From assembly GCA_964556665.1 (NCBI GenBank), contig CAZKXU010000001.1, positions 36,078 through 100,077 on the forward strand: a DNA stretch of 64,000 nucleotides, read 5' to 3'. A model generated the notes under the pieces. The model was given only the letters and a program-made list of their open reading frames with translations, did no database searches and had not been told where the DNA came from. Both the position numbers and the translations under genes were made by a program. This document shows, in pieces, positions 20,885 through 49,523 of this stretch; within the stretch, counting starts at the first letter, position 1; each line of letters starts with the position of its first letter. This DNA is from an uncultured Bdellovibrionales bacterium. GTDB lineage: Bacteria > Bdellovibrionota_C > UBA2361 > CAZKXU01.

Positions 20885-21946
20885 ATGTTTTCATTTCGAT
20901 TCAAGCATGTCTGCTTAGAGGCTTACGCCGTTAATCTTCCACCTAATGAACTATCTTCTGATACGATTGAAGATAGACTCGCCGCCGTTTATCAGAGGCT
21001 ATCTATCCCGCTTGGGACTCTGGAAAAACTAAGTGGTATTAAAACTAGATATTTTTGGCCGAATGGTACTCTTCCCAGCCAGCCCGCAACGGAGGTATCA
21101 AAGCTTGCGCTTGAGAAAATTGGATTCGATCGGAGTCATATCGGTGCTATAATTAACACCTCTGTTACTCGTGATTATTTTGAGCCAGCTACTGCCTGTA
21201 TAGTTCATGGGAACCTAGGGCTAGCGGAGACAACAGTTGCCTTTGATGTGACTAATGCTTGTATCGGATTCTCTAACGGAATCTTTCTGCTTGCCAATAT
21301 GATTGAGTCCGGCATGATCAAGGCCGGAATAATCGTATCTGCAGAGGTGTTGAACCGTTTTCTTGATTCAAGCCTTGAGTATGTGCAGCATAGTAAAGAC
21401 GTAAGTCGTGATAATCTCCTAAAACTTCTGCCTGCCTTTACATTAGGTAGCGGATCGGTCGCGTGGGTTTTGGCGCATGAAAGCATCGCCACACAGAGGC
21501 ATAGAATTGTTGGTGGCGTAGCGCGTTCAGCTACGCAGTTTAATGATCTTTGTAATGGGAACAATGACTACTGCGTCACGCAGCCAGGCGAGATTATGCC
21601 GGTAATGCTGACAGAGTCACAGAAGCTGATCTCTTCTGCATCCAAGCTTGGTGCAAGAGTGTGGCCAGAGGCGAGCCAGGTTTTAGGATGGAATAGTGAA
21701 GCGATTAATCACATCTTTTGCCACCAGGTTGGTAAGCAAGTCAATGAGGCTTTTTTTGCTGAGCAAGGGTTAGACTACAGCAAGGAGTATACAATTTATC
21801 GAAAGTACGGAAATTTAGTATCTGCAGCGTTACCAACGGCGGTTGCTTTAGGCATAGACGACAAGCCAGTGCGTAGCGGTGAAAAACTGTTATTAACAGC
21901 TTATGGTAGTGGTCTAAATACTGTCTTTACCGGTATTGAGTGGTAG
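20885..21946 (+). CDS. oleA: FabH-like thiolase, OleA-type (head-to-head Claisen condensing enzyme)
   Basis: KAS III fold (NACIGF active-site Cys region). First gene of a thiolase / hydrolase-ligase / dehydrogenase set. Confidence 0.6.
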   Translation: MFSFRFKHVCLEAYAVNLPPNELSSDTIEDRLAAVYQRLSIPLGTLEKLSGIKTRYFWPNGTLPSQPATEVSKLALEKIGFDRSHIGAIINTSVTRDYFEPATACIVHGNLGLAETTVAFDVTNACIGFSNGIFLLANMIESGMIKAGIIVSAEVLNRFLDSSLEYVQHSKDVSRDNLLKLLPAFTLGSGSVAWVLAHESIATQRHRIVGGVARSATQFNDLCNGNNDYCVTQPGEIMPVMLTESQKLISSASKLGARVWPEASQVLGWNSEAINHIFCHQVGKQVNEAFFAEQGLDYSKEYTIYRKYGNLVSAALPTAVALGIDDKPVRSGEKLLLTAYGSGLNTVFTGIEW

Positions 21947-24519
21947 CCTCTAAATCGATGTTCTCCACCTTTGCAATATCAAAACTTCTTCCCTTTAAGT
22001 CTAATTACCTGGAAGTAGCTGGGTATAAGATGCATTATCTTGATGAGGGCAGCGGTCCTATAGTTGTAGCTCTTCACGGCAATCCGACCTGGTGTTTTTA
22101 TTATAGAAATCTAATTACAGAGCTGCGCCAGCATTTTCGCATTATAGTTCCTGATTATATCGGCTGCGGACTCTCAGACCATCCTGAGGATAAACACTTC
22201 AGAGCAATTCATAGAATCGAGCAGCTGGATGAATTCCTTTCAAAATTAGGAATTAATAAGCTTTCATTAATAATGCACGATTGGGGCGGACCGATCGGGA
22301 CAGGCTGGGCAGTACGAAATATTTCTAAAGTTGAACGCCTAGTCTTCTTAAATACAACACTGACGGAAACAGATGCATTACCGCGCGTTATCAAAATGGC
22401 CGCCAAGGGTTGGATCGGGAGATACATCACAAAATATAGTATGCGTTTTCTTAAGCTTACTACGGATTTTGGGGTGGTGCACAAGCTTTCGAAAGAAATA
22501 AAGCAGGGATATTACTATCCGTATCGCAGTTCGAAACGTCGTACGGCTATATGTGATTTCGTTTCTGATATCCCATTTGACAGCAGCTATCCAAGCTACG
22601 GTGATCTTATGGATATGGCGGGTCGTCTAGCGGATCTTAGATCGGTTCCTGTGAAAATAATTTGGGGATTAAAAGATCCATGTTTTCATAGGGAGATGCT
22701 TAACAAAGTTGCAAAGCACTTTCCGCAAGCCGAGGTGGTTGAAATCCCAGAGGCATCGCATCTCGTATTAGAAGATGCACCGCAAATTGTCTGCCCAGCT
22801 GTTAAATCATTTTTACTTGATCCAGCACCCCGCAGCGGAACGGCAGTCTCAAACATGGCACCTTCTTATGAATTACAGCCTAATCGATTTTTTAAATCAT
22901 TCAGCGAACATGCACAAAAATCACCCTCTGCAGATGCAGCCATAGTACCTTGGTTTTTTGGAGAGATGGTAACTTATAACCATATTAGTTTTCGTGATTT
23001 ACAACTCTTAGTAAATAAGTATCAGCGCGGTTTGGCAGAGTTAGGTTTGCAGCGCGGGGACAAAGTCATAATGTTAGTGTCACCTGGAGTTGATTTTCTA
23101 GCACTAAGCTATGCTGTGATGGGTCGCGGAGCGATCCCTGTTTTTCTTGATCCTGGAATGGGGAAGGAGAATCTCTTAAACTCTATTGAACATGTAAAAC
23201 CTGCTGCTTTCATAGGATCTCCAAAGGCGCAGGTGCTGCGTTGGCTTAAAAGATCTTTGTTTGCTGGCATCAAGTTTCATCTTACGGCCAGCGAGTGGTT
23301 CTATACTGGCGGGCCGACTCTCTCCTATCTTAAAAAATTCTCATCATTCCCACCTGATCCGGTACAGGGGACAGGAGTGGCTCTGATTGCATTTACCTCA
23401 GGTGCGACCGGAGTGCCAAAAGGTGTGATATATACAGATGAAATGGTAGATGCACAGCTTCAGATCTTTAAAGATTCTTTTGGAATACAGCCTTTAAACA
23501 AAGATCTGCCACTATTGCCGATTTTTTCCTTATTTAACCTGGCATTGGGTGTGTGTAGTGTTTTCCCGCCTGTAGATCCATCAAAGCCACTAGAATTATC
23601 TCCATCCAAAATAGTTAAAATTATAAATGACCTTAATGTTGATTACTCATTTGGTTCACCTACGCTTTGGAGAAAAATAGGGGAGTACTGTTTGCGCAGC
23701 ACTGATAAGCTTCCTTCAATCCGTACTATATTAATGGCAGGTGCACCTGTGCCTCCAGAGACGGTAGTGTTAGTTAAAAACTATCTGCCTAACGGAGAGG
23801 TGTATACTCCTTATGGAGCTACGGAGGCTTTGCCGGTAACATTTGTTTCAGGTGAGGATATTTTAACACATCAAAGTGTGCCGGCGCTTACTGGGGAGTT
23901 AGGAACATTCGTTGGTCGAGCTGTTTCTGGCCTTGAGGTGAAAATTATCTCTGAATCTGATGAGAGATTAAGTGAAACTGTATCTCTGCCTCCTCTGCAG
24001 ATAGGGGAGATAGTTGTACGCGGGAAAAATGTTAGTTCAGAATATCTAGATCTGCCGAGATCAAATGAGCTTTCTAAAATACCTACCTCTTCAGGTCTAT
24101 GGCACCGCATGGGTGATATGGGCTATCTCGATAAGATCGGCAACCTGTATTTTTGCGGACGCAAGAGTCATATAGTGAAGTGGCAAGGAAAAGTATTTTA
24201 TAGTATTCCAGTCGAGCGTGTTTTTAATCAGCATCCCAAAGTTAGACGTTCTGCTTTAATTGCACTTGCTCGATCCTCTGGTATTGGAATTGCGATTGAA
24301 CCGTATCCGCAACACATGCCATCAAGCACAGATGAGCGTGATAAATTCATAGAGGAGCTTTTACAGTTAGGCGCAGCGAATCCTCTTACTGCCTCTTTAG
24401 CTAACATTTTCTTCTTTCCAAGTTTCCCGGTAGACAGTCGACATAACGCTAAAATCTTTAGGGATAAGCTGGGAGAGATGGCATCAAGGGAGGGATATGA
24501 ACATGAGCGCGCAGCATAA
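21940..24519 (+). CDS. oleBC: Fused alpha/beta-hydrolase (OleB-like) plus AMP-dependent synthetase/ligase (OleC-like, beta-lactone synthetase family)
   Basis: N-terminal HGNPTWCFYYR haloalkane-dehalogenase-like hydrolase motif. AMP-binding motif FTSGATGVPKGV further on. 859 aa. Confidence 0.65.
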   Translation: MVASKSMFSTFAISKLLPFKSNYLEVAGYKMHYLDEGSGPIVVALHGNPTWCFYYRNLITELRQHFRIIVPDYIGCGLSDHPEDKHFRAIHRIEQLDEFLSKLGINKLSLIMHDWGGPIGTGWAVRNISKVERLVFLNTTLTETDALPRVIKMAAKGWIGRYITKYSMRFLKLTTDFGVVHKLSKEIKQGYYYPYRSSKRRTAICDFVSDIPFDSSYPSYGDLMDMAGRLADLRSVPVKIIWGLKDPCFHREMLNKVAKHFPQAEVVEIPEASHLVLEDAPQIVCPAVKSFLLDPAPRSGTAVSNMAPSYELQPNRFFKSFSEHAQKSPSADAAIVPWFFGEMVTYNHISFRDLQLLVNKYQRGLAELGLQRGDKVIMLVSPGVDFLALSYAVMGRGAIPVFLDPGMGKENLLNSIEHVKPAAFIGSPKAQVLRWLKRSLFAGIKFHLTASEWFYTGGPTLSYLKKFSSFPPDPVQGTGVALIAFTSGATGVPKGVIYTDEMVDAQLQIFKDSFGIQPLNKDLPLLPIFSLFNLALGVCSVFPPVDPSKPLELSPSKIVKIINDLNVDYSFGSPTLWRKIGEYCLRSTDKLPSIRTILMAGAPVPPETVVLVKNYLPNGEVYTPYGATEALPVTFVSGEDILTHQSVPALTGELGTFVGRAVSGLEVKIISESDERLSETVSLPPLQIGEIVVRGKNVSSEYLDLPRSNELSKIPTSSGLWHRMGDMGYLDKIGNLYFCGRKSHIVKWQGKVFYSIPVERVFNQHPKVRRSALIALARSSGIGIAIEPYPQHMPSSTDERDKFIEELLQLGAANPLTASLANIFFFPSFPVDSRHNAKIFRDKLGEMASREGYEHERAA

Positions 24520-25528
24520 CCGTTTTATAGTTACAGGAGGCGGCGGATTTGTTGGTAAGGCCTTGGCCTTAAGATTGCGTTCCTTAGGTGCTGAAGTTAT
24601 CTCAGTGTCACGCGGTAATTATCCTGAGCTTACAGCTCTTGGTATTAAACATCAGCGTGTTGATCTGACCCAGGATTTTATGGGCCTCGTCCAGGTCTTT
24701 AAAGGAGCGGACGCTGTTTTTCATGTCGCTAGTAAGACTGATATGTGGGGGCCTTATGAGGATTTTTTTAAAAGTAATGTACTAGCAACTCAGAATATGA
24801 TCGAGGCCTGCAAACTCGCAGATGTGAATAAGCTTATCTATACCAGTAGTCCTAGTGTTGTTGCCGGCGGGGAGGATCTGAATGGTGTGAATGAATCTTA
24901 TCCATATCCAAAAGAACATTTGGCATATTACCCGATGACAAAGGCTCGTGCTGAGCAGGAGGTGTTGGCCGCTAATTCCAATGATTTATATACCATCGCA
25001 TTAAGGCCGCATCTGATATTTGGTCCAGGAGACAATCATCTAGTTCCTGAAATATTGGCACGTGCTAAAGCCGGCAAGCTGGTTCGTGTAGGTAGTCGTG
25101 AAATTATGACTGACCTTACTTTTATAGACGACTGTGTTGAAGCACATCTGCTAGCCTATAAAGCCCTGGATCGCGCCAGTGCACGAGGGCGCGCGTATTT
25201 TATAAGCCAAGGTGAGCCTGTATCTTTGTGGGGATGGATTAATAAAGTCTTAGAGCTCAATCAGCTTTCTCCGGTAACTAGAAGCATACCTCAATGGCTT
25301 GCTGAGACTCTCTCTGGTCCAAGCGAGTTGCTTGGAAAGATTGCAGGGAGTCGTCCATTACTTACAAAGTTTCTTGTATGTGAGATGTCAACAAATCATT
25401 ATTTTGATATATCTGCTGCTAAAAAAGAGCTTGGATATCAACCCTCTTGTAATATAGCAGAGGCGCTCCATCGAACCTTTGGCAAGAAAACGAGCGGTGC
25501 AGTTGTGCTAGAGCAAGCTGCTACTTAA
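24497..25528 (+). CDS. oleD: NAD(P)-dependent 3beta-HSD/epimerase family reductase (OleD-like)
   Basis: TGGGGFVGKAL Rossmann motif, YxxxK region. Overlaps the oleBC stop. Confidence 0.6.
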   Translation: MNMSAQHNRFIVTGGGGFVGKALALRLRSLGAEVISVSRGNYPELTALGIKHQRVDLTQDFMGLVQVFKGADAVFHVASKTDMWGPYEDFFKSNVLATQNMIEACKLADVNKLIYTSSPSVVAGGEDLNGVNESYPYPKEHLAYYPMTKARAEQEVLAANSNDLYTIALRPHLIFGPGDNHLVPEILARAKAGKLVRVGSREIMTDLTFIDDCVEAHLLAYKALDRASARGRAYFISQGEPVSLWGWINKVLELNQLSPVTRSIPQWLAETLSGPSELLGKIAGSRPLLTKFLVCEMSTNHYFDISAAKKELGYQPSCNIAEALHRTFGKKTSGAVVLEQAAT

Positions 25529-25604: not shown

Positions 25605-26642
25605 TTGCCAAATCTTGCCAATTATACTTTCTTAGATGAAGATAATATTATGACTGGTTCTACGCTTGCCGATATCAAAAAAATTCTAGGTATATTTCTG
25701 TTTCTCCTATCTCTTGGCCCAATTAATTTACTAGCTGATTCACCAGCCAAATCTATCTGGATTGCAATTCCAAAATTTGACTACTCCCAGCATCCTGAAG
25801 ACATTTACTTCCCAATCGCTATGTTCGATGGCTTAAAGTGGCATGCTCCTTGGCCACGTCCCTTTGATGAAAAGATTATTGAGGCTTCTGAGATGGATCT
25901 AAAAAATATTCCTGAAGCGTGGACTGGAAAATCTAAGCTTCCTGGAACTTGGAATCTTAGTTATGTTGATGGCTCGAAGCAGGTATCAATCATTACGAAA
26001 ATAAAAAAAACTAATTGTAGCTGCCAGGATGCTTACGGGATTCAGTTTAATAAGAGGAGTTCTAGCCGAGCATGTCTAGCTGTTACAGGAGAAGTAAGTG
26101 CTTATTGCGCACAAGAATTGAAAACAACAAGCTCAACCAAGGAATTTGATAATAGATTCCAAAGCTTGGTTGCGGCAGAGAGTACCTTCAAAAATAAGTT
26201 GTCAAAACTTGAATCAACTACAATAAACAAAGTCTTCTTAGTCGGTCCTGAAAGGAATTTTGCATTCGCCTCTTTTTTGAAAATGTTTGCTAAGAACCAG
26301 AGCGCACTTGATAGCTGTTACGAAGGCACCAATTGCAGTCCCCCATGTCTGGGTTTTGCTTATATGAGCGGCTGGTATTTAAATGGAAAGAAGATTCAGG
26401 CATTGAATGAGGATAGTGATGTTGTAGATTGTAGTAAGGACTCTGCGGGTTATAGCTATTCACCTGATCCATTAGGTATGCTTACTTTTGGTAAGCACTC
26501 CTACCTAATTGAACAGTCTAATGGATACGAGGCTCATGGGGTAAACATTTATGAGGTACTTGGAAATAAGATGGTCCAAGTCTTTTCTACGGATACAGAC
26601 CCAGAAACTGGTAAGCCTCTTTATGCATACTGTGGGTGTTAA
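25605..26642 (+). CDS. Secreted cysteine-rich protein, unknown function
   Basis: Signal peptide (ILGIFLFLLSLGPINLLA) and many Cys. True start probably the internal Met near 25650. Confidence 0.45.
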   Translation: MPNLANYTFLDEDNIMTGSTLADIKKILGIFLFLLSLGPINLLADSPAKSIWIAIPKFDYSQHPEDIYFPIAMFDGLKWHAPWPRPFDEKIIEASEMDLKNIPEAWTGKSKLPGTWNLSYVDGSKQVSIITKIKKTNCSCQDAYGIQFNKRSSSRACLAVTGEVSAYCAQELKTTSSTKEFDNRFQSLVAAESTFKNKLSKLESTTINKVFLVGPERNFAFASFLKMFAKNQSALDSCYEGTNCSPPCLGFAYMSGWYLNGKKIQALNEDSDVVDCSKDSAGYSYSPDPLGMLTFGKHSYLIEQSNGYEAHGVNIYEVLGNKMVQVFSTDTDPETGKPLYAYCGC

Positions 26643-26746: not shown

Positions 26747-26935
26747 TTATGCTACTATGTTCAATCGGGTACCTACACCGGGTGCGGGTGTATTGTCTAA
26801 ACCTTCAATTAGCAGTTCTGCGATATCACCTTTTTGATCGAGCGCTTTTTTAAATACTGCAACTTCAGCTTTCTGGTTATACTCTTCTAGTTTTTTGGAA
26901 GAAATTGCCGATACGGACAAGATTTCGTCTGCCAT
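26747..26935 (-). CDS. YjfB-like small protein (putative motility protein family)
   Basis: SVSAISS...AEVAVFKKALDQKGDIAELLIEGL resembles the YjfB signature. Confidence 0.4.
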   Translation of the reverse strand: MADEILSVSAISSKKLEEYNQKAEVAVFKKALDQKGDIAELLIEGLDNTPAPGVGTRLNIVA

Positions 26936-27430
26936 TGAAAACTCCTTTTACAATTTGCACCACCACAAATTGGCAACGCCCGGGGATCCATTCCCTAGTA
27001 AAAGTATCGGAGTCGACGCTTAGTTGCATAAGGCGTATTTATAGTTCAAGGGCATTTATACGAGTATAATCGAGTGCGCTCAAATTTATAGGAAACCATA
27101 GTGATTTTAGTATGTTATACGCCAATGATAATAAACAGATCCATTTCAGTCGAATTTATGACTTATAGTATGGTGATTGGTAAAGAGAGACTCGCACCTT
27201 CAATACGAATAACTTGAAGATTGTATTTTAAAACGATACCATCCTCCGCTTGTATTACTATGTTCTATAAAAATTAGTTTGGGCAGTAATTATGAGTAGA
27301 AGGGTAGGTTATCGTTCCTCGGGAGATCCTCACCGGTCTGCCCTGGAACGGTAGCGGTCAGATTGAAGGTTTTATCTAGCCGCAAACCGTTTGGCGATCC
27401 ATTCATGTTGCTTCTTCTGAGGAGCTTCAA

Positions 27431-29011
27431 TTGAAGAAAAGAGGCGGTTCAGGTTCGAAAGAGGGAATCGAGGTCATAGACAGGCCTGATGGAAAAAAGG
27501 AGGTCAAGGTTAGGCAGGTCGATCTCGCTGCTGCTGAAAACAAAAAGGAAGCAGTGGCAGCGAATCGGAGTGCTTGCGAGGGGCTTTCAGGCCTTGCACT
27601 CAAGGGCAAGGTCGTTCTCTTGAGCTTCGTCGGAGAGAACGGTTCCCGAGTAGCGCCAAGCGACACTATGCGTGACTTCGCGATCGGGAAGCTGCGCGGA
27701 AACTGTGCAGGGCTCTTCAAGCCAAACCTGCAAAGGGGTGGCTGGGAGGCGCTCTCGAAGAAGCAGGAGACGCAGTTTGTCCCGTTCGAGGAGGGCGCTG
27801 CCCCTGTGCTGGAGGTATTCGAGGAGGTTCCCTCGGAACCAGAAGCCTACGTAAAGCGGCTCTACATCGGAAGTGCTGATGCTTCCGGTGTGCTGACCAT
27901 TAGCCTTGATCTTGCTCCTCATTCCGCACTGATAGCGGATCTGGAGCGCGAGGCTGCGGAGAAGCGTGAGAGGGTCGCTGGTAAGGTGGTGGTTCTCGAG
28001 GCGCGCGCTGGTGGTGAACTGAAGAGCGATCACTGGAAGGCAGTTTTGCGTGGATTTGGCGCTGTACTTAAGGCAAAGCTGGTTCTGCGCAAGAGCTCTC
28101 TCGGTGATGGAAACTACGTTGTGCTCTTCAGCACCGATGAACGCTGGAACTTGGATAGCCGCAAGATCCTTGCCGAGCTCTTGGCACCGGTCGAATCGGC
28201 GAATCCGCAAGAGACGTCAGCGGCGGCTGAGCCGGCGGCAGAGGAAGTGGTGGCTGAAGAAGCTCCCGTGGCCGAAGCTGCAGAGCCAGAGGTGGTAGCC
28301 ACGGATGACGGCGCGCAAGCGCCGCCAGATGTTGCTCCACCCATGGATGAAGTTCCTGCAGTTGTAGAGACATCTGCGGCCGAAGCCACTCCTGCGCCGA
28401 CGGTGAAGGAAGCAGACGACGGTGCGCAGGTTCCGCCAGATGCACCTGCACAAGTGGTTGAAGTTCCGGCAGTTGAGGAGGTGCCTGGTACACAGGTGCC
28501 AAATGCTGCTGAGCTTGTGGTGGCTGAAGAACCACCACTTGGGCTTGAGGAGCTTTTGCCTGATGCGTTGCCGGCTGAAGAAGTCGCGCTGCAGGCTCCT
28601 ACTATGCCCGATGCTGCTGTTACTGCTCCCGATGCCAGCGTGGCAGAAGCTGCAGTGACACCCCCGAGTGGAGATGGTGATGCGGTCCAGGCGGCCGATA
28701 TTCAAGCAGCTCCCGAGGCTCCACCGGCAGAGCCAGAAGTGGTGGGCACAGCAGTGCTAGTTGAAGCACCGGACGTGGTGGCGCAGGCTCCGGCGGTTGA
28801 ACTGCTAGAGGAGATGTCTCCTGAGACAGGAAGAGCTGCGTCACAGATCGAGGCATTGCCTGCGGATCCAGCCCCTAGTGACGGTGCTCCACCGGTAGCT
28901 TCACTTGCACCTGCTTCCAGATCGGTACCGCCACATAACGGGCTGAAATGGTGGCAGATCATTCCCAAGCTACGTCGCCGCATGGCAAAAAACCTTGGGT
29001 TGCGAGAGTGA
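27431..29011 (+). CDS. GC-rich Pro/Ala/Glu-rich repeat protein, unknown function; TTG start
   Basis: Long ORF in a visibly GC-rich island. Acidic PAPE-type low-complexity C-terminal half with an approximately 117-bp tandem repeat (DDGAQ.PPD...EVPAV). Confidence 0.55.
   Translation: MKKRGGSGSKEGIEVIDRPDGKKEVKVRQVDLAAAENKKEAVAANRSACEGLSGLALKGKVVLLSFVGENGSRVAPSDTMRDFAIGKLRGNCAGLFKPNLQRGGWEALSKKQETQFVPFEEGAAPVLEVFEEVPSEPEAYVKRLYIGSADASGVLTISLDLAPHSALIADLEREAAEKRERVAGKVVVLEARAGGELKSDHWKAVLRGFGAVLKAKLVLRKSSLGDGNYVVLFSTDERWNLDSRKILAELLAPVESANPQETSAAAEPAAEEVVAEEAPVAEAAEPEVVATDDGAQAPPDVAPPMDEVPAVVETSAAEATPAPTVKEADDGAQVPPDAPAQVVEVPAVEEVPGTQVPNAAELVVAEEPPLGLEELLPDALPAEEVALQAPTMPDAAVTAPDASVAEAAVTPPSGDGDAVQAADIQAAPEAPPAEPEVVGTAVLVEAPDVVAQAPAVELLEEMSPETGRAASQIEALPADPAPSDGAPPVASLAPASRSVPPHNGLKWWQIIPKLRRRMAKNLGLRE
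28303..28536 (+). repeat. Approximately 117-bp in-frame tandem repeat inside the GC-rich gene
   Basis: GATGACGGCGCGCAAGCGCCGCCAGAT... recurs as GACGACGGTGCGCAGGTTCCGCCAGAT... Protein level DDGAQAPPD / DDGAQVPPD. Confidence 0.6.
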
Positions 29012-29020
29012 AGTCAGTGC

Positions 29021-29070
29021 GTGCGGGGGTGTGTCTGAAGCAGCAGACACACCCCCGCGGCCCTTAGTGG
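29021..29070 (+). terminator. Strong GC hairpin after the GC-rich gene
   Basis: GCGGGGGTGTGTCTGAAGCAGCAGACACACCCCCGC; no clean U-tract. Confidence 0.45.
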
Positions 29071-29237
29071 TTTTTAAAAGGGTGACCGCGCCGTTTGTTT
29101 TTCGTTATAGATCTAAGACTAGCGAAGCTCGCACCTTAGGCAGATAGTTGTTTTTATTGCTTCATCAATAATGCGTTGGAATAATTAGTTATTTAAAAAA
29201 CTATGAGAAGGGGCGGCTAGATCAAGCCGCGGCATAA

Positions 29238-29297: not shown

Positions 29298-29705
29298 TTA
29301 GATACTATCTCCGATGTTCTGGTCGTTAAAGAAGGTTGAAACGAGAGAACGAAGGATAAAAGCACCTACTGCAACAACTAACAAGCCAAGAGCGGCTTTA
29401 TACTGACCGAATGCAGAGGCAAAGATAGCTCCTATTCCAGCAGCAACCATTACTAACGCACCAAATGAACCTTCAAGATATGTGAAGATTCTATTAACAG
29501 CTAATGCAATACGCTGATCGTTGTAGTTTCCTACATCAATCTGAGCACTCGCACCATGTACAAGACCGGCGCTTAATAGGCCAATCCCGATTAAGAAAAG
29601 AGCAACCTGGGCCTGACTCTGAGAAGGAGCATAAAATGCTGCCCCTACTTTCTGTCCAAGGCCAAGATAACCCTTTTTAAAAGTAGCAAGAATTTTCTTG
29701 GACAT
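29298..29705 (-). CDS. Small membrane protein, possibly VirB2/TrbC pilin-like
   Basis: 135 aa. N-terminal Lys-rich leader, hydrophobic segments separated by a loop, Gly/Ala-rich. Followed by a perfect intrinsic terminator. Confidence 0.4.
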   Translation of the reverse strand: MSKKILATFKKGYLGLGQKVGAAFYAPSQSQAQVALFLIGIGLLSAGLVHGASAQIDVGNYNDQRIALAVNRIFTYLEGSFGALVMVAAGIGAIFASAFGQYKAALGLLVVAVGAFILRSLVSTFFNDQNIGDSI

Positions 29706-30120
29706 AAATTAACTCCGTTAAGTATTAATACTATATTTTCCCTTTACCGGCAGCAAACCTTAGTTTTTACCTCAAGCAGCTGCCCCATGTGTTTTCTAAT
29801 TATGTTATGTTGACAGATAATAAGATGTGACCTGTTTTTTTATTGATATGGTGCAGCGCGGCTATGAAAAAACTAGTGTATACAGATGGTTAGCAGGCTT
29901 AATCGGTATTTGATCATTAAGTGTGGGTATTCTCTTTGTCCCAGTCCTAGTCCTAGTCCGCGTGGACTGTGATGAGGGTAAGGATTCGGACAAAGACAAA
30001 GACGAGGACTGGGACAAGGAGATTACCCACACTTTTTCAGCAGTTACGGAGAAAGAGAATACCCACACCTAATGAGCAGTTACGCAGACTTGAGATAATT
30101 AGTAGTATGCTCTCAGCACA

Positions 30121-31038: not shown

Positions 31039-31126
31039 TATTCTGAGGCATTTATACATACCTATTTTAACAAGTTAGTTAAATCCACAAGCAACAATTT
31101 TATCATTTTCTCGAATATATAGATAT

Positions 31127-31320
31127 ATAGTGAGTGACAGAATAACGTAGCGTTATTCTGTCACTCACTATAGCCAGGCCATGGGTGGCCAGGTCGGGCC
31201 GAAAGGCCCGGAGAACGGCTTGGAATGGGCTCTCGGGGATCCGTTCCAAGCCGTTCGAGGAGGGATTTAGCCATGGACGGCTAAATCCCGACAGCCAGAA
31301 TTCCGCTACGGAATTCTGGC
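31127..31320. repeat. Family B element, copy 2, opposite orientation and diverged terminal hairpin
   Basis: Starts with ATAGTGAGTGACAGAATAACGTAGCGTTATTCTGTCACTCACTATAG, ends with GCCAGAATTCCGCTACGGAATTCTGGC. The central GAACGGCTTGGAA...TTCCAAGCCGTTC hairpin is shared. Confidence 0.75.
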
Positions 31321-31356: not shown

Positions 31357-31767
31357 GTGTATATGAATAACAAAGGCTTTAGTTATGAAATTAGAGAGGG
31401 AGATATCCTGCAGTTCAGAGAGGATATTAATGTAATACCTGCGGGTGTATATCGGGTAGATGGGGTCGATGAACAGATGATATATTTTATGGCTGGGAAA
31501 AGCGCTGTATTTGGTGTGGAGAGAAGCTGTCAGGGAAAGATGGTGAAGCTCCCGCGAGAAAGCGGTAAAATAAAAATTACAGCGCTTAATTCCTTCTTAG
31601 AACGGTACTATAGAAATCTTAAGGCACGCAAAGGTAAAGCATGGTCAGTAACAGAGCTTGCATCTCTTCCCGTGACGATGTGTTTTATAGATCCATCTGT
31701 GGCAGCACTGTTTGAGGAGGAGTTATATAAGGAGGAGAAAGAGGGTCAGTGTGAAATAATGCACTAG
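31357..31767 (+). CDS. Hypothetical protein (136 aa)
   Basis: Clean ORF, no motif. Confidence 0.4.
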   Translation: MYMNNKGFSYEIREGDILQFREDINVIPAGVYRVDGVDEQMIYFMAGKSAVFGVERSCQGKMVKLPRESGKIKITALNSFLERYYRNLKARKGKAWSVTELASLPVTMCFIDPSVAALFEEELYKEEKEGQCEIMH

Positions 31768-31937
31768 CCACCCCTTCTCATAGTTTTTCAAATACCTATT
31801 TATTCCAACGCATTATCGATCAAGCAATAAAAACAACTATTCTCAAATAAAATGGAGCCGCCCTACTTTTCAACTATTTGGGAATTTGTCATCAATTAGA
31901 TTGCATACGAGTCAAAAATAATGTAGAATTTTGACAT

Positions 31938-33089
31938 ATGATCCAAAGGCTTATTAACCCATTGAAATCAAACAGCTTCTTCCTGTTTGGGGCACGTGGA
32001 ACAGGAAAAACATTCTTTTTAAAGAATTTTTTTAGTAAGGAGCAATATTTATTAATTGACCTTTTGAGCACCTCAAATCTAGCCCGATTTAGCGCGTACC
32101 CCGAGGAGTTGTCGAAGATAGTTAAGAGTCAAAAAGTAGAGTGGATCGTTATAGATGAAGTGCAAAAAATCCCTTCCTTACTCGATCTTGTTCATAAACA
32201 TATAGAAGAAGATCGACAAAAATTTGTATTAACTGGCTCAAGCGCCAGGAAATTAAAGCGTGGCGGAGCAAATCTTTTGGCAGGCAGAGCTTATGTAAAT
32301 TATATGTTTCCTTTAACTCATCGTGAGCTGGCTGAGAATTTTGATCTGCATACAGCTCTTGCATGGGGCAGCCTACCCAAGTCATATCTATTAGAGAATG
32401 ATCAAGAGAAGCGAGTATTCTTAAATTCGTATACAGACACATATCTTAAGGAGGAGATTCTGATTGAACAGATTGTGCGTAAACTTCCACCCTTTCAAAG
32501 GTTTCTTGAAATAGCCGCGCACACTGATACTGAAGAGATTAATTTAACAAACATAGCAGCAGATGTTTTAACTAGCCCTAAAAATATTCAGCGGTATTAT
32601 CAGATTTTAGAAGATACCCTTCTCGGATTTTTTCTTGAATCTTATCATACCTCTATTAGGAAACGTCAGAAACGTAGCAAAAAATTTTATTGGTTTGATG
32701 TCGGAATTATACGATCACTTACCGGTAGTATAGATAATAAATTACTTGTAAAAAGCTATGAATACGGCAAATTGTTCGAATCTTTCGTAATTAACGAGAT
32801 TAAAAGACTGCTAACCTATTCAGGCCGCAGATATGCTCTTTCATTTCTTAGAACAACAGATGGTCAGGAGATTGATCTTATAATAGAAAGAGCTGGCATG
32901 CCAACTTATCTAGTTGAAATTAAGTCAACTGATTTTGTACGTGAGGAACATGTTACCACCCTGAATAATTATCTGAAGGAGTTTAAAAATGCAAAAGCGA
33001 TCTGTTTGTCAAATGATTTAAGCAGTAAAAAAATTGGTGCAGTAGATTGCTTCGAGTGGAAGGAAGGAATTACTGAGATGGGGATTTAA
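31938..33089 (+). CDS. AAA ATPase with DUF4143-type C-terminal domain (COG1373-like)
   Basis: Walker A GARGTGKT, Walker B IVIDEVQ. Confidence 0.7.
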   Translation: MIQRLINPLKSNSFFLFGARGTGKTFFLKNFFSKEQYLLIDLLSTSNLARFSAYPEELSKIVKSQKVEWIVIDEVQKIPSLLDLVHKHIEEDRQKFVLTGSSARKLKRGGANLLAGRAYVNYMFPLTHRELAENFDLHTALAWGSLPKSYLLENDQEKRVFLNSYTDTYLKEEILIEQIVRKLPPFQRFLEIAAHTDTEEINLTNIAADVLTSPKNIQRYYQILEDTLLGFFLESYHTSIRKRQKRSKKFYWFDVGIIRSLTGSIDNKLLVKSYEYGKLFESFVINEIKRLLTYSGRRYALSFLRTTDGQEIDLIIERAGMPTYLVEIKSTDFVREEHVTTLNNYLKEFKNAKAICLSNDLSSKKIGAVDCFEWKEGITEMGI

Positions 33090-33360
33090 ATGGCTAATGG
33101 CTAGGAGATCGCTTATTGTTTTGTCTAATAAACCAAATCTCGGACATAAAAGTTAACAGTTAGTTGTGCTATAATTGAGTTGAAGGTGGCTTTGAAGAGA
33201 CGATAGAGGCAGTGAAAGATTAGGGGTGCAAAGTTAGATAGTATAAGTAAAGCACTGAGGACCGAAGGGATTTTAATACGTATTAGTGTTCTAGTATATA
33301 TAGGAACTAAGTTGCTGAGCATAAGCGCATAGTAGGAACTGTTGATTTTGGCTCTAAGCA

Positions 33361-33546
33361 CTAGTGCTCCTCCAAATAAGTTTTTTCACGTATAGCATCA
33401 CATCGTTGCCCCACCTTGTCACGCTTCTCAGTCGGAAAATCCTCGCAATACTCCAGTATTGCTGCGGATTTCCTCCTTCCGAGGCGTGCCAATCTGGGGC
33501 AACGCTGCGCGCTATACGTGAAAAAACTTATTTGGCGAAGCACTAG
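33361..33546. repeat. MITE-like element C2, inverted orientation relative to C1
   Basis: Reverse complement matches 4106-4292 with about 1 mismatch plus TIR tip variation. Confidence 0.85.
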
Positions 33547-33603
33547 TAGTAGGTTATAATTGGTGGCTTAGTGAACAGTTTGGTGATTACTCACTTAATA
33601 ATC

Positions 33604-37145: not shown

Positions 37146-37658
37146 CTAGCCCTCAGCTTGCAAGGCTAATCCAGGAATAAACCGTTCCGGATCTTGAACC
37201 TCACCGTTTAGACGGATCTCGAAATGAAGGTGCGGCCCGGTTGAAATTCCAGTGCTGCCTACGGTGGCAATAATCTGTCCGGATTTAATCCGTTGTCCGG
37301 GCTTGATCTTGAATTTTTCAAGATGACCATAGTGTGAGGTCATACCGTTGGTATGCTTAATAGTGATAAAATTTCCGTATCCTTCGTAGGGATCGGCAAA
37401 GATAACTATTCCGCCTTGAATTGCTCGTACAGGTGTACCCGCAGGCGCAGCTAGATCAATGCCGTGATGATGGCGGGAAACTTTGAAAATCGGATGTTTT
37501 CGCTTGCCGTAGCCGCTCGAAACTCTTGGGCTCATTAATGGATAGACGAAGGCAGTTGACCCTCCAGTAAGGCCAAGTGGAAAAGCTAAGGCGAAGTTAC
37601 TTTCCAGCAACAGCACCAGAGCGAATAAGCTTAAAAGCATCATCCTCAGCTTGTGCAT
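37146..37658 (-). CDS. M23 (LytM) family peptidoglycan endopeptidase, secreted
   Basis: HHGIDLAAPAGTPV and HLHFEIR metal-binding motifs. Signal peptide. Confidence 0.8.
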   Translation of the reverse strand: MHKLRMMLLSLFALVLLLESNFALAFPLGLTGGSTAFVYPLMSPRVSSGYGKRKHPIFKVSRHHHGIDLAAPAGTPVRAIQGGIVIFADPYEGYGNFITIKHTNGMTSHYGHLEKFKIKPGQRIKSGQIIATVGSTGISTGPHLHFEIRLNGEVQDPERFIPGLALQAEG

Positions 37659-38643
37659 TGTATCCCTTAATTCTTAAGGCACCGGACGGACTGCTTTGTC
37701 CGTCTGTACCGAAAGCCACTACATCACTCGATACCCATGCTCGAGCACCTGTAGGTGCTAGCACTCGATACCACTCTCCCTGACGGGTTTCTATTGCCAG
37801 GCGAGTCCCCTTTGTCACAGCCATTAGTGGGGAGTTGTCTTTGCCTGGACCTGTACGAAGCTGTGCTTTGTCTACAATAATAGTAGCTATTGGCATCTCC
37901 TCTACCGGTTGGGCAACAGGCTGCTGTTTACGCTGCTGTGCCGGAGGATGCCGATTTACATTCACTGCTGCTACTGCTCCTAGCTTAGTCAAATTACTAC
38001 GATTGCGTGCTTCAAACTGTGAGGAGAGACGTTCTACTTCAGTTTCTGCCACCATAAGTCGATTACGAGTGTCATTTAACTCCCGACTGAGGCGCTGGAT
38101 CTTGGTCTTAGCCTCCTTCAATTCGCCATCTAAGATCTCCTTGCCTGACTTGAAGCTCTGAAGCTCCTTGGAGCTAGTACTTAGTGTTGTTAATGCACCT
38201 TTATGAGCAAGCTTAATCGCCTGCAGCTCATTCTTAAGACTACTGATTTCCTTCTCCTGTGATAGGGACTTAGCCTCCAGTCCTTCGAAATCAACTGTTG
38301 TAGCTTTAGAAATCTCATCAGCTGTTAGCACCTCACTTCTTGAATTCTCCTTCTTTGCGTTCTTTGACGGAGCTAGAGCAGCCATTTTTGAACTATCATC
38401 TCCTGAAATCTCATCACTTGCTATCTCGCTCTGCTCGGCCTTAATCTTTTTTAACAGTTCCTGCTCAGCAGCCATCAATTTATCTGATGTAGCATCGAGT
38501 GCATTGTCGGCTGCATTGGGATCGAGAGAAGAGAGCTTGTCTTTTATTCGCTCGATCTCACTATCAGTATCAAGTGCAAATGCAGGTGTGCTAACTGCTA
38601 TTGCAGTCACTATCAGAATTAAAAACGTACATCTTACAGCCAT
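37597..38643 (-). CDS. Secreted coiled-coil protein with C-terminal SH3b-like domain
   Basis: Signal peptide and long heptad region. C-terminal GEWYRVLAPTGARAWVSSDVV is SH3b-like. Overlaps the M23 gene by 62 bp in another frame. Confidence 0.5.
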   Translation of the reverse strand: MAVRCTFLILIVTAIAVSTPAFALDTDSEIERIKDKLSSLDPNAADNALDATSDKLMAAEQELLKKIKAEQSEIASDEISGDDSSKMAALAPSKNAKKENSRSEVLTADEISKATTVDFEGLEAKSLSQEKEISSLKNELQAIKLAHKGALTTLSTSSKELQSFKSGKEILDGELKEAKTKIQRLSRELNDTRNRLMVAETEVERLSSQFEARNRSNLTKLGAVAAVNVNRHPPAQQRKQQPVAQPVEEMPIATIIVDKAQLRTGPGKDNSPLMAVTKGTRLAIETRQGEWYRVLAPTGARAWVSSDVVAFGTDGQSSPSGALRIKGYNAQAEDDAFKLIRSGAVAGK

Positions 38644-38661
38644 AATAACTCCAAAAATATG

Positions 38662-39195
38662 CTAGGCGCTAAGTTTTTGAGGTGTCTGAGCATCAAGTTT
38701 CGCCTTCTTTTCACGCTCTTCACGCTCTGTTAATATTATCTCACGTACCTGATGAGGTGCTGAAATTCCCTCCATCGTTATCTCAATCCCAGCGACTGCT
38801 GCTGTTGCAACATCCACAGTGCCGACATTAAGAAGCCGTTGAACTAAAGATTGATCGGTCTCAACACTTCTTATGTCTTCAAATCTAATTCGGGTAATAG
38901 ACTGACGCATGCTCAATATTCCAACCCTAGCTTCGATGCCACGCGCATCTATGATATAACGCACGTCATATATCTTCAGAAGAAGATCGCATAATATGTA
39001 GAGCGGAGCTAACGTAAAGAGTGGAAGTGTTAGAAAAACTCTAGTCTGGCCTATGTCAAAAAGCTTTCCAGTTATAATGCTGTTAGGATAGTAGTGTGAA
39101 AGCAAGATGCAAGCGACACTACTAACAGCTAGGGCTATCAATCTCCCAAATTGAGAACGCCATGCTCGCGGAATTGTTACTTTGCCCTGTATCAT
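38662..39195 (-). CDS. Membrane protein with bacterial PH (bPH_2 / YdbS-T-like) domain
   Basis: Two N-terminal TM helices, then a PH-like domain. Confidence 0.5.
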   Translation of the reverse strand: MIQGKVTIPRAWRSQFGRLIALAVSSVACILLSHYYPNSIITGKLFDIGQTRVFLTLPLFTLAPLYILCDLLLKIYDVRYIIDARGIEARVGILSMRQSITRIRFEDIRSVETDQSLVQRLLNVGTVDVATAAVAGIEITMEGISAPHQVREIILTEREEREKKAKLDAQTPQKLSA

Positions 39196-39212
39196 AAAAT
39201 TCGATCTACTAA

Positions 39213-39560
39213 TTAATCCATTCCCAATATCTGCTCTATGTCATCAAGCTTTGAAGAGCCCTGCTGCTTAGGTTTTTGTTGAGGCAATTGCGAAGCTGCC
39301 TGCTTCGCCTTTAACCGCTTTATTTCGTCAGCAGTGCTTGCAACATCAAGATCCGCTTCCTCCCGGTCTAGATTTTGGAATAGGGATCCGCGTGGTGTAC
39401 TGACATTTTTGAATCTAGAATGAGTATCTCGTAGCTCAATCTTTGCTCCGGAGAAGCGTACTACTGTAAAAATGAGTGCGATTAAAATTAGAGTAACGAG
39501 ATTACGTCTCTCTGAAAAAGGAGCAATTACGTTACGTGCATTTATAAGACTCATAGGCAC
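39213..39560 (-). CDS. Small bitopic membrane protein, T4SS-associated by position
   Basis: One TM helix (LVTLILIALIFTVV). Sits in an operon with the VirB4-like gene. Confidence 0.35.
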   Translation of the reverse strand: MPMSLINARNVIAPFSERRNLVTLILIALIFTVVRFSGAKIELRDTHSRFKNVSTPRGSLFQNLDREEADLDVASTADEIKRLKAKQAASQLPQQKPKQQGSSKLDDIEQILGMD

Positions 39561-39571
39561 CTCATAAAAAT

Positions 39572-39856
39572 CTACTTCTGTTTCTTTTGCCAGCGACCCT
39601 GTCGGATTTCAACTACAGCTTCATGTGCCGGCCGGTAGTAATTTCCCTCAGGATCTAGGCCTGCTGGCACTTTTACTACATCAACTATCGGTTCTTGCCA
39701 AAGGTACGGTTGAGTCCCTTCCTTTCTCACCTCACGCACGACCGGAAGTGGAGCTGGGGCTGGAGGAGGAGGAGGCTGCTTCATACACCCAGACAAGATA
39801 GGCACAAGAACTAAACAATACTTTATTAATTTAATCATAATCTTTCCTCCGTACAA
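39572..39856 (-). CDS. Small proline-rich lipoprotein
   Basis: Lipobox ILSGC followed by PPPPPAPAP. Confidence 0.4.
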   Translation of the reverse strand: MYGGKIMIKLIKYCLVLVPILSGCMKQPPPPPAPAPLPVVREVRKEGTQPYLWQEPIVDVVKVPAGLDPEGNYYRPAHEAVVEIRQGRWQKKQK

Positions 39857-39859
39857 AAT

Positions 39860-42619: not shown

Positions 42620-42627
42620 ACTAAACC

Positions 42628-43086
42628 TTAATAAGTTCTAGCCTTAGTTCCTGGCACCAAAATTCTGACAAGATGACGCTTATGATCAACCTGCACATCG
42701 ACATTTGCACGTCTTGAAATGCGCTTAGCTAAATCATCTAAGCTGCCGATGGCATCCATTGTTAGTCTTCTGTCAGCAAGTTCATATGCTACAAAACTTG
42801 AATAACGTGCGCTTGATGCGAGAATTGATGCCACCTCTTCAAGCGAGGAGTTCTCTACGCTGAGATGCAGCTCTGGCATCACAACCGGAGCCGCAGCGCG
42901 TTTAGTCTCACGTGCTGGTTTGGTATACGGCATATACTCAATTTTTACCCTACCATACACAGGCTCTGGTGGTAGCTGTTCTGTAGCTACACGATATTGG
43001 GGTATAGGCTCTGGCTCTGGCTTGGAAAAAGATGCACAACCACAGAGGCATAAACCTAATATTATGGCAGAAATCCGTGCTATCAC
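42628..43086 (-). CDS. Lipoprotein (T4SS outer-membrane/periplasmic component?)
   Basis: Lipobox LCLCGC. Overlaps the upstream gene by 4 bp. Confidence 0.45.
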   Translation of the reverse strand: MIARISAIILGLCLCGCASFSKPEPEPIPQYRVATEQLPPEPVYGRVKIEYMPYTKPARETKRAAAPVVMPELHLSVENSSLEEVASILASSARYSSFVAYELADRRLTMDAIGSLDDLAKRISRRANVDVQVDHKRHLVRILVPGTKARTY

Positions 43087-43535
43087 TGTCTTCTCCTAAC
43101 ATCATCTTCGTAAACATAAGGAAGATTTGAACCTGCACTAGCGCCAGGACCTTGCAGCTGTTTCTCAAGCTCGAATGAATCCTGTACTGCCCAACGCTCT
43201 TTTAAAACTTTAATGTAGTAATAGTGATCGGGCACTAAATCTCCGTGACTATTGACATGATCGGGTACCCACATAATTCGAACAACCGCGGGCTGCATAA
43301 CAGGGTTCGCTGGTTCCGGCTCCTGAGCGCGCCTATAGGTTGATAACTTCTCAAGTGAGGCTCGCGCTGAATCCATCTTGTCAGCCTCATTTAGTAGTGC
43401 TCGATCTGTTCTTTCACCTAGAAGTGCTTCCGGCTTTGGGGCTTCATAGAACGGATTAAGCACATTACCTGCTGAGGCGCATCCACTAAGTACTACTGCT
43501 GCTGTCCATGTAAATATTATACTACGAATCTTCAT
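43083..43535 (-). CDS. Lipoprotein (T4SS-associated)
   Basis: MKIRSIIFTWTAAVVLSGC lipobox. Start taken at the internal Met of the 43613 ORF. Confidence 0.45.
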   Translation of the reverse strand: MKIRSIIFTWTAAVVLSGCASAGNVLNPFYEAPKPEALLGERTDRALLNEADKMDSARASLEKLSTYRRAQEPEPANPVMQPAVVRIMWVPDHVNSHGDLVPDHYYYIKVLKERWAVQDSFELEKQLQGPGASAGSNLPYVYEDDVRRRQ

Positions 43536-43557
43536 AATTACCTCCAAAATTTCTATC

Positions 43558-44892: not shown

Positions 44893-44900
44893 ATGCTACC

Positions 44901-45701
44901 CTACCTTGCTGATTTAGGTTTGGTTACAATGTAAATTTTAGTCTGATGCTTTCCTGCTATCTGATGCTCAATATTGAGAGGCTTAGCAGCTAATTCCCAA
45001 TTTTGCATAGATATTGCTCTGGTACCATCAAGACGAAAAGTTGCCGGATTAATGCGCTGTACGACATCTAGGCGATTCTCCGCATCGATAATATAACCCC
45101 AAAGATTTGGTCCAATTATTAGTTTGTCAATTTTGGCTGAGAGTGTCCCGTCATCAAGCACCACCTCGCCGCGATATTTTTCGCTGATCTGATATCCTGG
45201 CACTGCTCCCTTACCGAACTCAGTTACTAAGACCATCTCGCGCATTAGGCCGCTAATCGCAGTAGGCGGGGCATATTCATAGTTTTTTTCCTTATATGCT
45301 GGATCCATCTCCTCTTTGGATAAAATCATAGATCCACGCTCATCCAAAATTCTTACTAAATTATCCCTTGGACTCTCATCGTTGGAGCGTTGTGCACGAA
45401 TCGAGTAAGAGCGACCATCTTCAAGCCGTACAATGATTGCTTCACCCTGGTCGCTGAGAGACTCTCTTGCAAAGATAATTAGATCTGAATCTTTCTTATC
45501 TAGAGAGATGGCGGAGTCTTTTCTTTTGAAGCCTCCCGAGATCTTCCCTGGGAACTCTAGCTGAGTTGGCTCTCCAGGAGTTACTCGTATAGTGACCTCC
45601 TGATTGTCGTACTGTACGTCACGAGCCAAAGCTGTGTTCGCAAGCATCAATAGACCTGAGATTACGAAGCTAAATTTTACAAATACATCTTTCCTGTTCA
45701 T
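44901..45701 (-). CDS. VirB9/DotH(IcmK)-like secreted T4SS core protein
   Basis: Signal peptide, beta-rich. Position between the VirB8-like and VirB10-like genes. Confidence 0.45.
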   Translation of the reverse strand: MNRKDVFVKFSFVISGLLMLANTALARDVQYDNQEVTIRVTPGEPTQLEFPGKISGGFKRKDSAISLDKKDSDLIIFARESLSDQGEAIIVRLEDGRSYSIRAQRSNDESPRDNLVRILDERGSMILSKEEMDPAYKEKNYEYAPPTAISGLMREMVLVTEFGKGAVPGYQISEKYRGEVVLDDGTLSAKIDKLIIGPNLWGYIIDAENRLDVVQRINPATFRLDGTRAISMQNWELAAKPLNIEHQIAGKHQTKIYIVTKPKSAR

Positions 45702-45709
45702 AAATGCCC

Positions 45710-46426: not shown

Positions 46427-46436
46427 TTACTCATTA

Positions 46437-46823: not shown

Positions 46824-46834
46824 TCATCCCTCCC

Positions 46835-47251: not shown

Positions 47252-47474
47252 AGATTACACCTATTCAATAGATATATTGCCTTCACAATAGAGCAGTCGC
47301 TCAAATTGTCAATTAACGTTATGTAAACTATAGACCTTTTTGTGATGTGATTTTTTAATAAATTTGGAGTAACCTTCTGTGGAAACTCAACATAATATAT
47401 TATGAATTTATGAGGTTGTTTTAACGCCTTAGTAAGATATTCAGTCCTTTTTACTACGGCCAAGGGTTATATTT

Positions 47475-49508: not shown

Positions 49509-49523
49509 TAGTAAGATTGTATT

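Follow-up and report, generated by a model that had tools for sequence, protein, structure and literature searches.

Single-gene GC island encoding an orphan protein with an acidic tail in an accessory, type IV secretion-associated stretch of a Bdellovibrionota-like chromosome: a plausible case of lateral acquisition

The DNA analyzed here, a stretch of 64,000 nucleotides from contig CAZKXU010000001.1 of an uncultured Bdellovibrionales bacterium (referred to as the window), contains at positions 27431 to 29011 a single gene that is clearly GC-richer than its surroundings. The gene encodes an orphan protein of 526 aa, which consists of an N-terminal region of ordinary composition, a long acidic low-complexity region and a short basic C-terminus. 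It was described in a first-pass annotation, made by eye, as a compositional island of possibly horizontal origin.

For all compositional comparisons, the 64-kb window was used as the background and the 43 other long open reading frames (ORFs) therein as the gene reference. The GC content of the window is 43.6%, whereas that of the ORF 27431–29011 is 58.8%. This value (0.588) lies 5.5 standard deviations (SD) above that of the 43 other ORFs (0.436 ± 0.028). Among 1-kb bins, only the region 27001–29000 deviates, with GC contents of 0.494 and 0.598. In a 200-nt profile, the GC content rises from 0.32–0.42 at 27100–27400 to 0.56–0.65 across 27500–29100 and then returns to 0.38–0.45. The highest 1.5-kb window has a GC content of 0.597 (z = 7.1), compared to a maximum of 0.494 elsewhere. 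A maximum-likelihood segmentation of the region 25.0–31.5 kb with two breakpoints placed the island at 27550–29064, with a GC content of 0.60 inside and 0.415 outside. The dinucleotide signature distance delta* of the island (127.5, compared to 54.6 ± 19.0 for equal-sized windows) lies at the extreme end of the window range. The island is real and statistically solid inside the window, and the higher GC content than in the flanks, noticed in the first-pass annotation, was borne out.

Back-translation of the protein with the codon frequencies of the window resulted in a GC content of 0.528, compared to an observed value of 0.589 and the background of 0.436. The GC excess of 0.153 is thus composed of 0.092 due to the amino acid composition (approximately 60%) and 0.061 due to synonymous codon choice (approximately 40%). 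The first part is explained by the codons for Ala, Pro, Val, Glu, Gly and Asp, all of which start with G or C. The second part is distributed unequally along the gene. For aa 2–270, the GC content of the third codon position (GC3) was found to be 0.613, with an expected value of 0.369. This excess of +0.244 corresponds to 6.4 SD (the SD among the other ORFs is 0.038), so that the codon usage, for which the first annotation had proposed a comparison with the genome average, exceeds the variance of the window ORFs. For aa 271–526, the observed GC3 is 0.453 and the expected one 0.371, an excess of +0.082 or 2.1 SD. The difference between the two halves amounts to z = 3.7. In the acidic region, the GC content of the first codon position (GC1) reaches 0.83, whereas GC3 is just 0.45.

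The same pattern was observed for individual amino acids. In the N-terminal half, Leu is never encoded by TTA or CTA, which account for 41% of the Leu codons in the host window. Lys is encoded by AAG in 83% of all cases (host 43%) and Thr by ACC or ACG in 80% (host 30%). The codon usage for Asp, Gly, Pro and part of Ala in the target is host-like. The foreign-looking codon choice is mostly concentrated in the N-terminal half.

The gene is a real stand-alone protein-coding gene, read in the plus frame. The probability of an open frame of 526 codons arising by chance at the local base composition was estimated here to be about 2e-8. The GC contents of the three codon positions (GC1/2/3) are.748/.480/.535; the first position is a G in 46% (N-terminal half) and 57% (C-terminal half) of the codons and a T in 12% and 5%, respectively. 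The frame was also scored using an amino acid composition model trained on the window genes versus their mirror-antisense translations. In nats per residue, the plus frame scored +0.24 in the N-terminal and +0.41 in the C-terminal half, and the mirror antisense frame +0.05 and −0.21. The known window genes score +0.113 ± 0.044, and their antisense translations −0.116 on average.

It is hardly credible that the real coding sequence lies on the opposite strand (27587–28210 and 28217–28705, in the same frame) or that the region is non-coding. The mirror antisense frame contains just 8 stop codons in 526 codons, and its GC1/2/3 values in the N-terminal half (.615/.441/.667) resemble those of a typical GC-rich gene. 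Nevertheless, stop codons interrupt this frame but not the sense frame, and both the base pattern and the composition scores favor the plus strand. The overlapping ORFs, which fill both strands and were already considered spurious in the first-pass annotation, have lengths of 207, 162, 136, 97, 93 and 91 aa on the minus strand and 82 aa on the plus strand, and a family search gave no match for any of them. Since TTA, CTA and TCA are nearly absent from the codons of the target, long ORFs on the antisense strand are an automatic consequence.

Table 1. Coordinates of the GC-rich gene, its parts and flanking signals, and of other features in the window.
Feature	Position	Strand	Remarks
Olefin (Ole) cluster	20885–25528	+	OleA, fused OleB-OleC, OleD
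Cys-rich orphan gene	25605–26642	+	345 aa (or 330 aa)
YjfB-like gene	26747–26935	-	62 aa
Intergenic gap	26936–27430		495 bp, between the divergent YjfB-like gene and the target; GC 0.402
Shine-Dalgarno-like GAGGAG	27419–27424	+	6 nt upstream of TTG; read from sequence
GC-rich orphan gene	27431–29011	+	526 aa, TTG start; 526-codon open frame
N-terminal region, aa 1–270	27431–28240	+	pI 7.7, near-neutral, mixed alpha/beta, ordinary composition
Acidic Pro/Ala/Val/Glu-rich low-complexity region, aa 271–495	28241–28915	+	pI 4.05; P+A+E+V = 71%
Repeat copy 1 (DDGAQAPPD...EVPAVVE)	28304–28369	+	repeat search
Repeat copy 2 (DDGAQVPPD...EVPAVEE)	28415–28480	+	repeat search; 76% identical to copy 1 over 66 nt
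Basic C-terminal segment, aa 496–526 (...NGLKWWQIIPKLRRRMAKNLGLRE)	28916–29008	+	pI 12.0
Perfect 15-bp GC-rich hairpin	29023–29058	+	12 nt past the stop codon; inverted repeat, 100% complementary
77-nt inverted repeat	29144–29220 and 31764–31840		92% identity; only two copies in the window; encloses 2.7-kb segment
Pilin-like gene	29298–29705	-	135 aa; leader of ~54 aa ending ...HGASA, then two hydrophobic helices
36-nt repeat units	29898–30083		direct (81%) and inverted (86%)
Perfect 22-bp hairpin	31126–31172		3-nt loop
AAA_14/DUF4143 ATPase gene	31938–33089	+	PDC-S01 match
Imperfect palindrome	33360–33547		188 bp
Conjugative-type T4SS cluster	37146–51650		
TraC gene	39860–42619		
TraD/TraG-like coupling protein gene	49524–51650		
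LanM-type RiPP locus	52313–56395		
Precursor candidate	55760–56395		nitrile-hydratase-leader type (NHLP)
UvrC gene	56647–58473		
MbnB/TglH/ChrH-type RiPP locus	61164–62727		

The gene is flanked by one divergent and one convergent neighbor. The TTG start codon proposed earlier was confirmed, since an in-frame TAG is located upstream at 27377–27379 and no other start codon is found between this TAG and position 27431. The Shine-Dalgarno-like sequence GAGGAG precedes the TTG and is among the strongest in the window, where only 14 of 45 long ORFs show so much as a partial match in the 20 nt ahead of their most upstream start codon. Either many of these ORFs start further downstream or the organism depends little on Shine-Dalgarno sequences.

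The intergenic gap upstream of the gene is the second-longest in the window (the median length is 113 bp) and presumably holds the promoter and the 5′ leader of the target. It had been reported as an AT-rich gap of about 500 bp. The length agrees well, but the GC content is ordinary for intergenic DNA of the window (0.389 ± 0.069), with 0.364 for the first 354 nt and 0.496 for the last 141 nt. Within the gap, no ORF with a family match and no Rfam match at E ≤ 1 could be identified, the RNA folding was not unusual (z = −1.08 and +0.17) and a promoter scan gave no sigma-70-like site on the plus strand.

Downstream of the stop codon, the strong GC-rich hairpin noticed at first reading could be verified. 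The 91-nt context of the stem folds at −45.3 kcal/mol (z = −5.06). A T-tract does not directly adjoin the stem; a TTTTT run is found approximately 12 nt past it, and the hairpin is not listed by a terminator scan. A canonical intrinsic (Rho-independent) terminator was ruled out on account of this spacing, and the hairpin is probably a transcript end or a stabilizer. In addition, the 3′ arm and loop (29031–29057) agree at 22 of 27 nt (81%) with a segment coding for part of the acidic tail (28640–28666, VAEAAVTPP). Duplication of part of the gene may have given rise to the hairpin, or the similarity may be due to chance.

The tail of the protein (aa 271–526) contains 21% Ala, 16% Pro, 13% Val and 12% Glu, and its most acidic stretch of 200 aa carries a net charge of −44, which is unique in the window. 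The acidic Pro/Ala/Glu-rich tail described before was thus found again, and its region aa 271–495 is presumed to be disordered. The last 16 aa of the protein have a net charge of +5, and the helical hydrophobic moment reaches its highest value of the whole protein (0.56) at aa 506–523. Judged by its sequence, the basic C-terminus is a candidate for an amphipathic helix, a docking peptide or an export signal.

Part of the acidic region is duplicated. The duplication of 37 aa (111 nt) is degenerate and comprises two copies of a 66-nt core. In the first-pass annotation, this region was considered to be a tandem repeat of approximately 117 bp. The duplicated DDGAQ unit is indeed present, but the distance from start to start was determined to be 111 nt, and the array consists of two degenerate copies only. 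Tandem Repeats Finder did not call the duplication and reported only a 23-nt match with a period of 12 nt. The assignment to the tandem-repeat protein class was rejected, with two copies of 76% identity over 66 of 111 nt. An origin of the two copies from a diversity-generating retroelement (DGR) was ruled out as well, since the mismatches show no specificity for adenine and a reverse transcriptase is lacking. A test of the N-terminal half for internal repeats revealed no internal duplication.

In a word-indexed search of 5.8 billion proteins, the target matched only itself. An exhaustive HMMER search of aa 1–270 against 1.84 billion representative sequences, eukaryotes included, resulted in the protein itself and two long repeat proteins. 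The latter were rejected as spurious, since their scores are sums of 6–10 weak stretches. The N-terminal half, reported as unrecognised, therefore has no true relative in the profile search. No Pfam domain was found at E-values up to 10, neither for the whole protein nor for sub-segments, and no match to the target in NCBIfam, PHROGs or PADLOC, or among the PDB sequences at E-values up to 10. Furthermore, no relative could be identified in plasmid and phage collections (tblastn and blastn), in metagenome contigs (pattern and tblastn scans with both halves) or in viral contigs, and the 64-kb window contains no paralog.

The structure prediction with AlphaFold2 on the single sequence resulted in a confidence (pLDDT) of 41 for aa 1–275 and 62 for aa 130–265. 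Fold searches with the predicted models gave no significant match. For aa 130–265, Foldseek found a similarity to the DNase-I-like subdomain of RNase E with an E-value of 0.013 and a TM-score of 0.41 on a low-confidence model. The fold classes compared for this segment were the RNase E DNase-I-like subdomain, IF3-C and the STAS-like alpha/beta sandwich.

For the assignment of the host, the UvrC gene located downstream together with a UvrB gene was used. The closest relatives of UvrC share 57% identity, and the named ones are metagenome-assembled genomes (MAGs) of Bdellovibrionota, Oligoflexia or 'Deltaproteobacteria'. On the basis of this protein, the host is assigned to a deep-branching Bdellovibrionota-like lineage. 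The upstream neighbor on the plus strand encodes a Cys-rich protein whose N-terminal segment is hydrophobic. This protein is an orphan as well and matched only itself in the search of 5.8 billion proteins. With a lineage lacking a close sequenced relative and an orphan neighbor, orphan status is expected for non-core genes of this lineage.

The divergent gene encodes a protein resembling the 'putative motility protein' YjfB (PF14070, E = 5e-6; 26.8 bits compared to a cut-off of 27). Further upstream lies an olefin cluster encoding a FabH-like OleA, a fused OleB-OleC of 859 aa (alpha/beta-hydrolase and AMP-ligase) and a 3-beta-HSD-like OleD. The closest relatives of this cluster are 47–56% identical and were found in Planctomycetes MAGs of 65–70% GC and in one Bdellovibrionota MAG; the genes themselves have a host-like GC content. 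A scan of a genome collection with OleD yielded relatives at ≤56% identity only, none of which carries the target gene, and a megablast search of 25 kb against plasmids gave no match.

Approximately 85 nt past the hairpin of the target, a 2.7-kb segment begins that is bounded by the 77-nt inverted repeat and excludes the target gene. It contains the pilin-like gene, the 36-nt repeat units, an EamA transporter gene and an ORF of 136 aa. No target-site duplication is evident for the inverted repeat, and its arms are without notable RNA structure. It may represent a cassette lacking a transposase, or else a piece of DNA capable of inversion.

The pilin-like protein has no match in Pfam, NCBIfam or PHROG. 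Its sole match among the PDB sequences is the VirB2 protein of the Agrobacterium T-pilus (8EXH, E = 0.33), with an alignment spanning both hydrophobic helices. It is probably a divergent pilin of the VirB2/TrbC type, encoded 8 kb from the main cluster of the type IV secretion system (T4SS). The 36-nt units between the pilin-like gene and the EamA gene may represent an operator array or a remnant resembling a miniature inverted-repeat transposable element (MITE). A perfect 22-bp hairpin located approximately 90 nt past the EamA gene causes weak false microRNA matches in Rfam.

Beyond the segment, a gene for an AAA_14/DUF4143 ATPase was identified that matches the PADLOC candidate defense family PDC-S01 (E = 8e-58). 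It is followed by an imperfect palindrome with outer arms of 37 nt (95%) and inner arms of 42 nt (71%), which leads to near-identical small ORFs on both strands. The conjugative-type T4SS cluster encodes an M23 peptidase, an SH3 and coiled-coil protein, a bPH_2 protein, TraC/VirB4, TraN-like and TraV-like lipoproteins, TrbI/TraB-like and TraE-like proteins and a TraD/TraG-like coupling protein. For the ORFs 44901–45701, 46437–47251 and 47475–49508 of this cluster no family match was found, and no relaxase or integrase was recognized in the window. Two loci for ribosomally synthesized and post-translationally modified peptides (RiPPs) follow. The first one contains the class II lanthipeptide synthetase LanM (DUF4135 plus LANC_like) beside the NHLP precursor candidate, the second one an enzyme of the MbnB/TglH/ChrH family paired with a DUF2063 partner. 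The target gene thus sits in an accessory, rearrangement-prone and T4SS-associated stretch of the chromosome.

The deviations in GC, GC3 and dinucleotide composition indicate foreign DNA that is incompletely ameliorated, most clearly in the N-terminal half, although they do not prove it; the inference of transfer from composition and the concept of amelioration have been described (PMC3091660). The reading preferred here, with a probability of roughly 45%, is that a single gene was laterally acquired from an unsampled, moderately GC-rich donor and that its low-complexity tail has since evolved in place. A gene-sized piece of DNA would have been taken up from a donor of roughly 55–60% GC into the accessory, T4SS-associated part of a Bdellovibrionota-like chromosome. 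The acidic tail would then have evolved faster in place by duplication or slippage and would have drifted towards the codon usage of the host. The horizontal origin suggested in the first-pass annotation is thus backed by the codon usage of the N-terminal half (6 SD), the extreme dinucleotide signature and the context of T4SS, cassette and orphan genes, but a donor, a homolog or a hallmark of mobility was not found, and 60% of the GC excess stems from the amino acid composition.

Several observations weigh against this reading. Approximately 60% of the GC excess is accounted for by the amino acid composition alone, and the GC3 of the tail is just about 2 SD above the expectation. An equivalent dinucleotide distance (129.0, the maximum) occurs in one further stretch of this size. 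The borders of the island match the gene itself, which a gene-intrinsic cause would predict likewise. Orphan status alone is unremarkable in a lineage with no close sequenced relative, as indicated by the best UvrC identity of 57%. Neither half has a homolog in any of the collections searched, which leaves no donor and no phylogenetic evidence for a transfer. In addition, the window contains no tRNA, the neighbors no integrase or transposase domain, and no significant direct repeat flanks the target. The flanking matches detected, a direct repeat of 14 out of 17 nt at 27184/29121 and an inverted one of 10 nt at 27374/29213, are each expected by chance with a probability of about 10–20% according to our own estimate.

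The main alternative is a native, fast-evolving and lineage-specific gene, the GC content of which is due to the protein composition and to gene-specific codon selection (for example through high expression or constraints at the mRNA level). This alternative is possible, though less likely than acquisition. It would account for an island that is exactly gene-sized and without mobility hallmarks, for the 60% of the GC excess given by the protein sequence, for the host-like Asp, Gly, Pro and part of the Ala codons, and for the neighbor that is likewise an orphan in a lineage without close relatives. On the other hand, a GC3 of 0.61 in the N-terminal half, 6 SD away from all 43 other ORFs, and the complete absence of TTA and CTA there count against a native gene. 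Translational selection should moreover affect the whole gene, yet the two halves differ (z = 3.7).

An assembly artefact, in which a GC-richer contaminant fragment was joined into the contig, was considered very improbable. The composition changes sharply at both sides, and there are no relatives that could confirm the arrangement. However, the fragment would have to be exactly one intact gene with a ribosome binding site and a 3′ hairpin. It is located in the middle of a contig of 135,681 bp with normal intergenic DNA on both sides, and the codon usage of its tail is close to that of the host. A double chimeric junction sparing a complete transcription unit would be improbable. Lateral transfer is regarded as plausible but unproven.

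With respect to function, the product would consist of three parts, namely a folded alpha/beta N-terminal region of approximately 260–270 aa, an acidic disordered spacer of approximately 225 aa and, at the C-terminus, a short amphipathic helix of basic character. In the mechanism considered most likely, this helix would dock the protein on the inner face of the membrane or on a partner protein, and the spacer would act as a long, flexible and self-repelling tether for the N-terminal domain. This proposal is made because the architecture is analogous to that of FtsA, MinD, RNase E and FtsZ, without homology. FtsZ carries a C-terminal linker plus a conserved peptide, FtsA and MinD have C-terminal amphipathic membrane-targeting helices, and RNase E possesses a membrane-targeting helix within its disordered half.

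The basic tail could also be recognized by the TraD/TraG-like coupling protein, and as a T4SS substrate the product would then reach the interior of a recipient, prey or host cell. In VirB/VirD4-type systems, translocation can be signaled by clustered positive charges at the C-terminus (PMC3297438), and the target has an Arg/Lys cluster of net +5 in its last 16 aa following the −44 tail, no Sec signal, and genes for a coupling protein, TraC and an adjacent pilin-like protein in the same window. Comparably basic C-termini were found in 3 of 48 window ORFs including UvrC, so that the charge alone is weak evidence. Furthermore, the local system looks conjugative and F-like, and the protein substrates known for such systems, namely relaxases, carry their signals internally (PMC3297438). 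The gene also lies 8 kb away from the cluster and shows no homology to any effector. Taken together, a role as T4SS substrate appears improbable.

No signal peptide, lipobox, anchor motif, or hydrophobic or membrane segment was found in the protein. Its N-terminus MKKRGGSGSKEGIEVIDRPDGKK is polar and the maximum Kyte-Doolittle mean over 19 residues is 1.29; as far as can be predicted from these features, the product is not exported by Sec. The view of the first-pass annotation that it might be a eukaryote-like secreted or surface protein is not supported. The low-complexity tail with its duplicated unit would suit a Sec-secreted or surface-exposed eukaryote-like repeat protein, and acidic Pro-rich repeat regions are known from several host-associated bacteria, where they form part of secreted and surface proteins. 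Nevertheless, such a protein is a very remote prospect here, given that the product lacks any domain match and any homolog, eukaryotic or other, in a search space of about 15 billion proteins, and that the repeat comprises only two degenerate copies.

A more far-reaching proposal, which must be considered a long shot, is that the protein is the founding member of an unseen family. It would be a Sec-independent conjugative or T4SS cargo, delivered by that system or tethered to the membrane via the C-terminal helix, and encoded by a chimeric gene that was acquired from a GC-richer unsampled donor (such as prey or a host) and has a foreign head and a locally grown tail. If the acquisition is true, the gene represents a clean single-gene case of GC-rich acquisition in a lower-GC genome of a poorly sampled phylum. 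With their different codon signatures, the two halves would illustrate amelioration or gene chimerism on a small scale, and the dark matter of T4SS-associated cargo would grow by one family. The finding bears on no long-standing open question and is a curiosity rather than a discovery.

The target can be compared with acquired orphan genes (ORFans) in accessory regions of bacteria. It shares with them the single-gene extent, the deviant GC, GC3 and dinucleotide composition, the lack of homologs and a location near conjugation genes, cassettes bounded by repeats and further orphans. It differs in that no integrase, tRNA or att repeats are present, that the deviation is largely driven by amino acids and that the halves differ in codon usage. 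In addition, acquired genes and orphans more often have a lower GC content than their host, whereas that of the target is higher.

The layout of FtsZ, FtsA, MinD and RNase E is similar to that of the target with respect to the folded N-terminal part, the long flexible Pro/Ala/Glu-rich segment and the terminal basic amphipathic helix. The likeness concerns the architecture only, as the N-terminal domain of the target has no sequence or significant fold similarity to these proteins. Acidic repetitive proteins rich in Pro, Glu, Ala and Val are known in bacteria, such as the magnetosome protein MamJ, proteins with acidic proline-rich domains in Mycoplasma and the tandem-repeat proteins of Ehrlichia. 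The very low pI, the low complexity rich in Pro, Ala, Glu and Val and the internal duplication are found in the target as well, although it has no sequence relationship to them, a different genomic context and two degenerate copies only.

Finally, substrates of the VirE2/VirF type in Agrobacterium (PMC3297438) resemble the target in their Arg/Lys-rich extreme C-terminus, the lack of a Sec signal and the T4SS and coupling-protein genes nearby. They differ in that the target shows no homology to them, the local system looks conjugative and F-like and the charge feature is not specific within the window. In comparison with these known systems, the gene is a new orphan family within a known kind of phenomenon.

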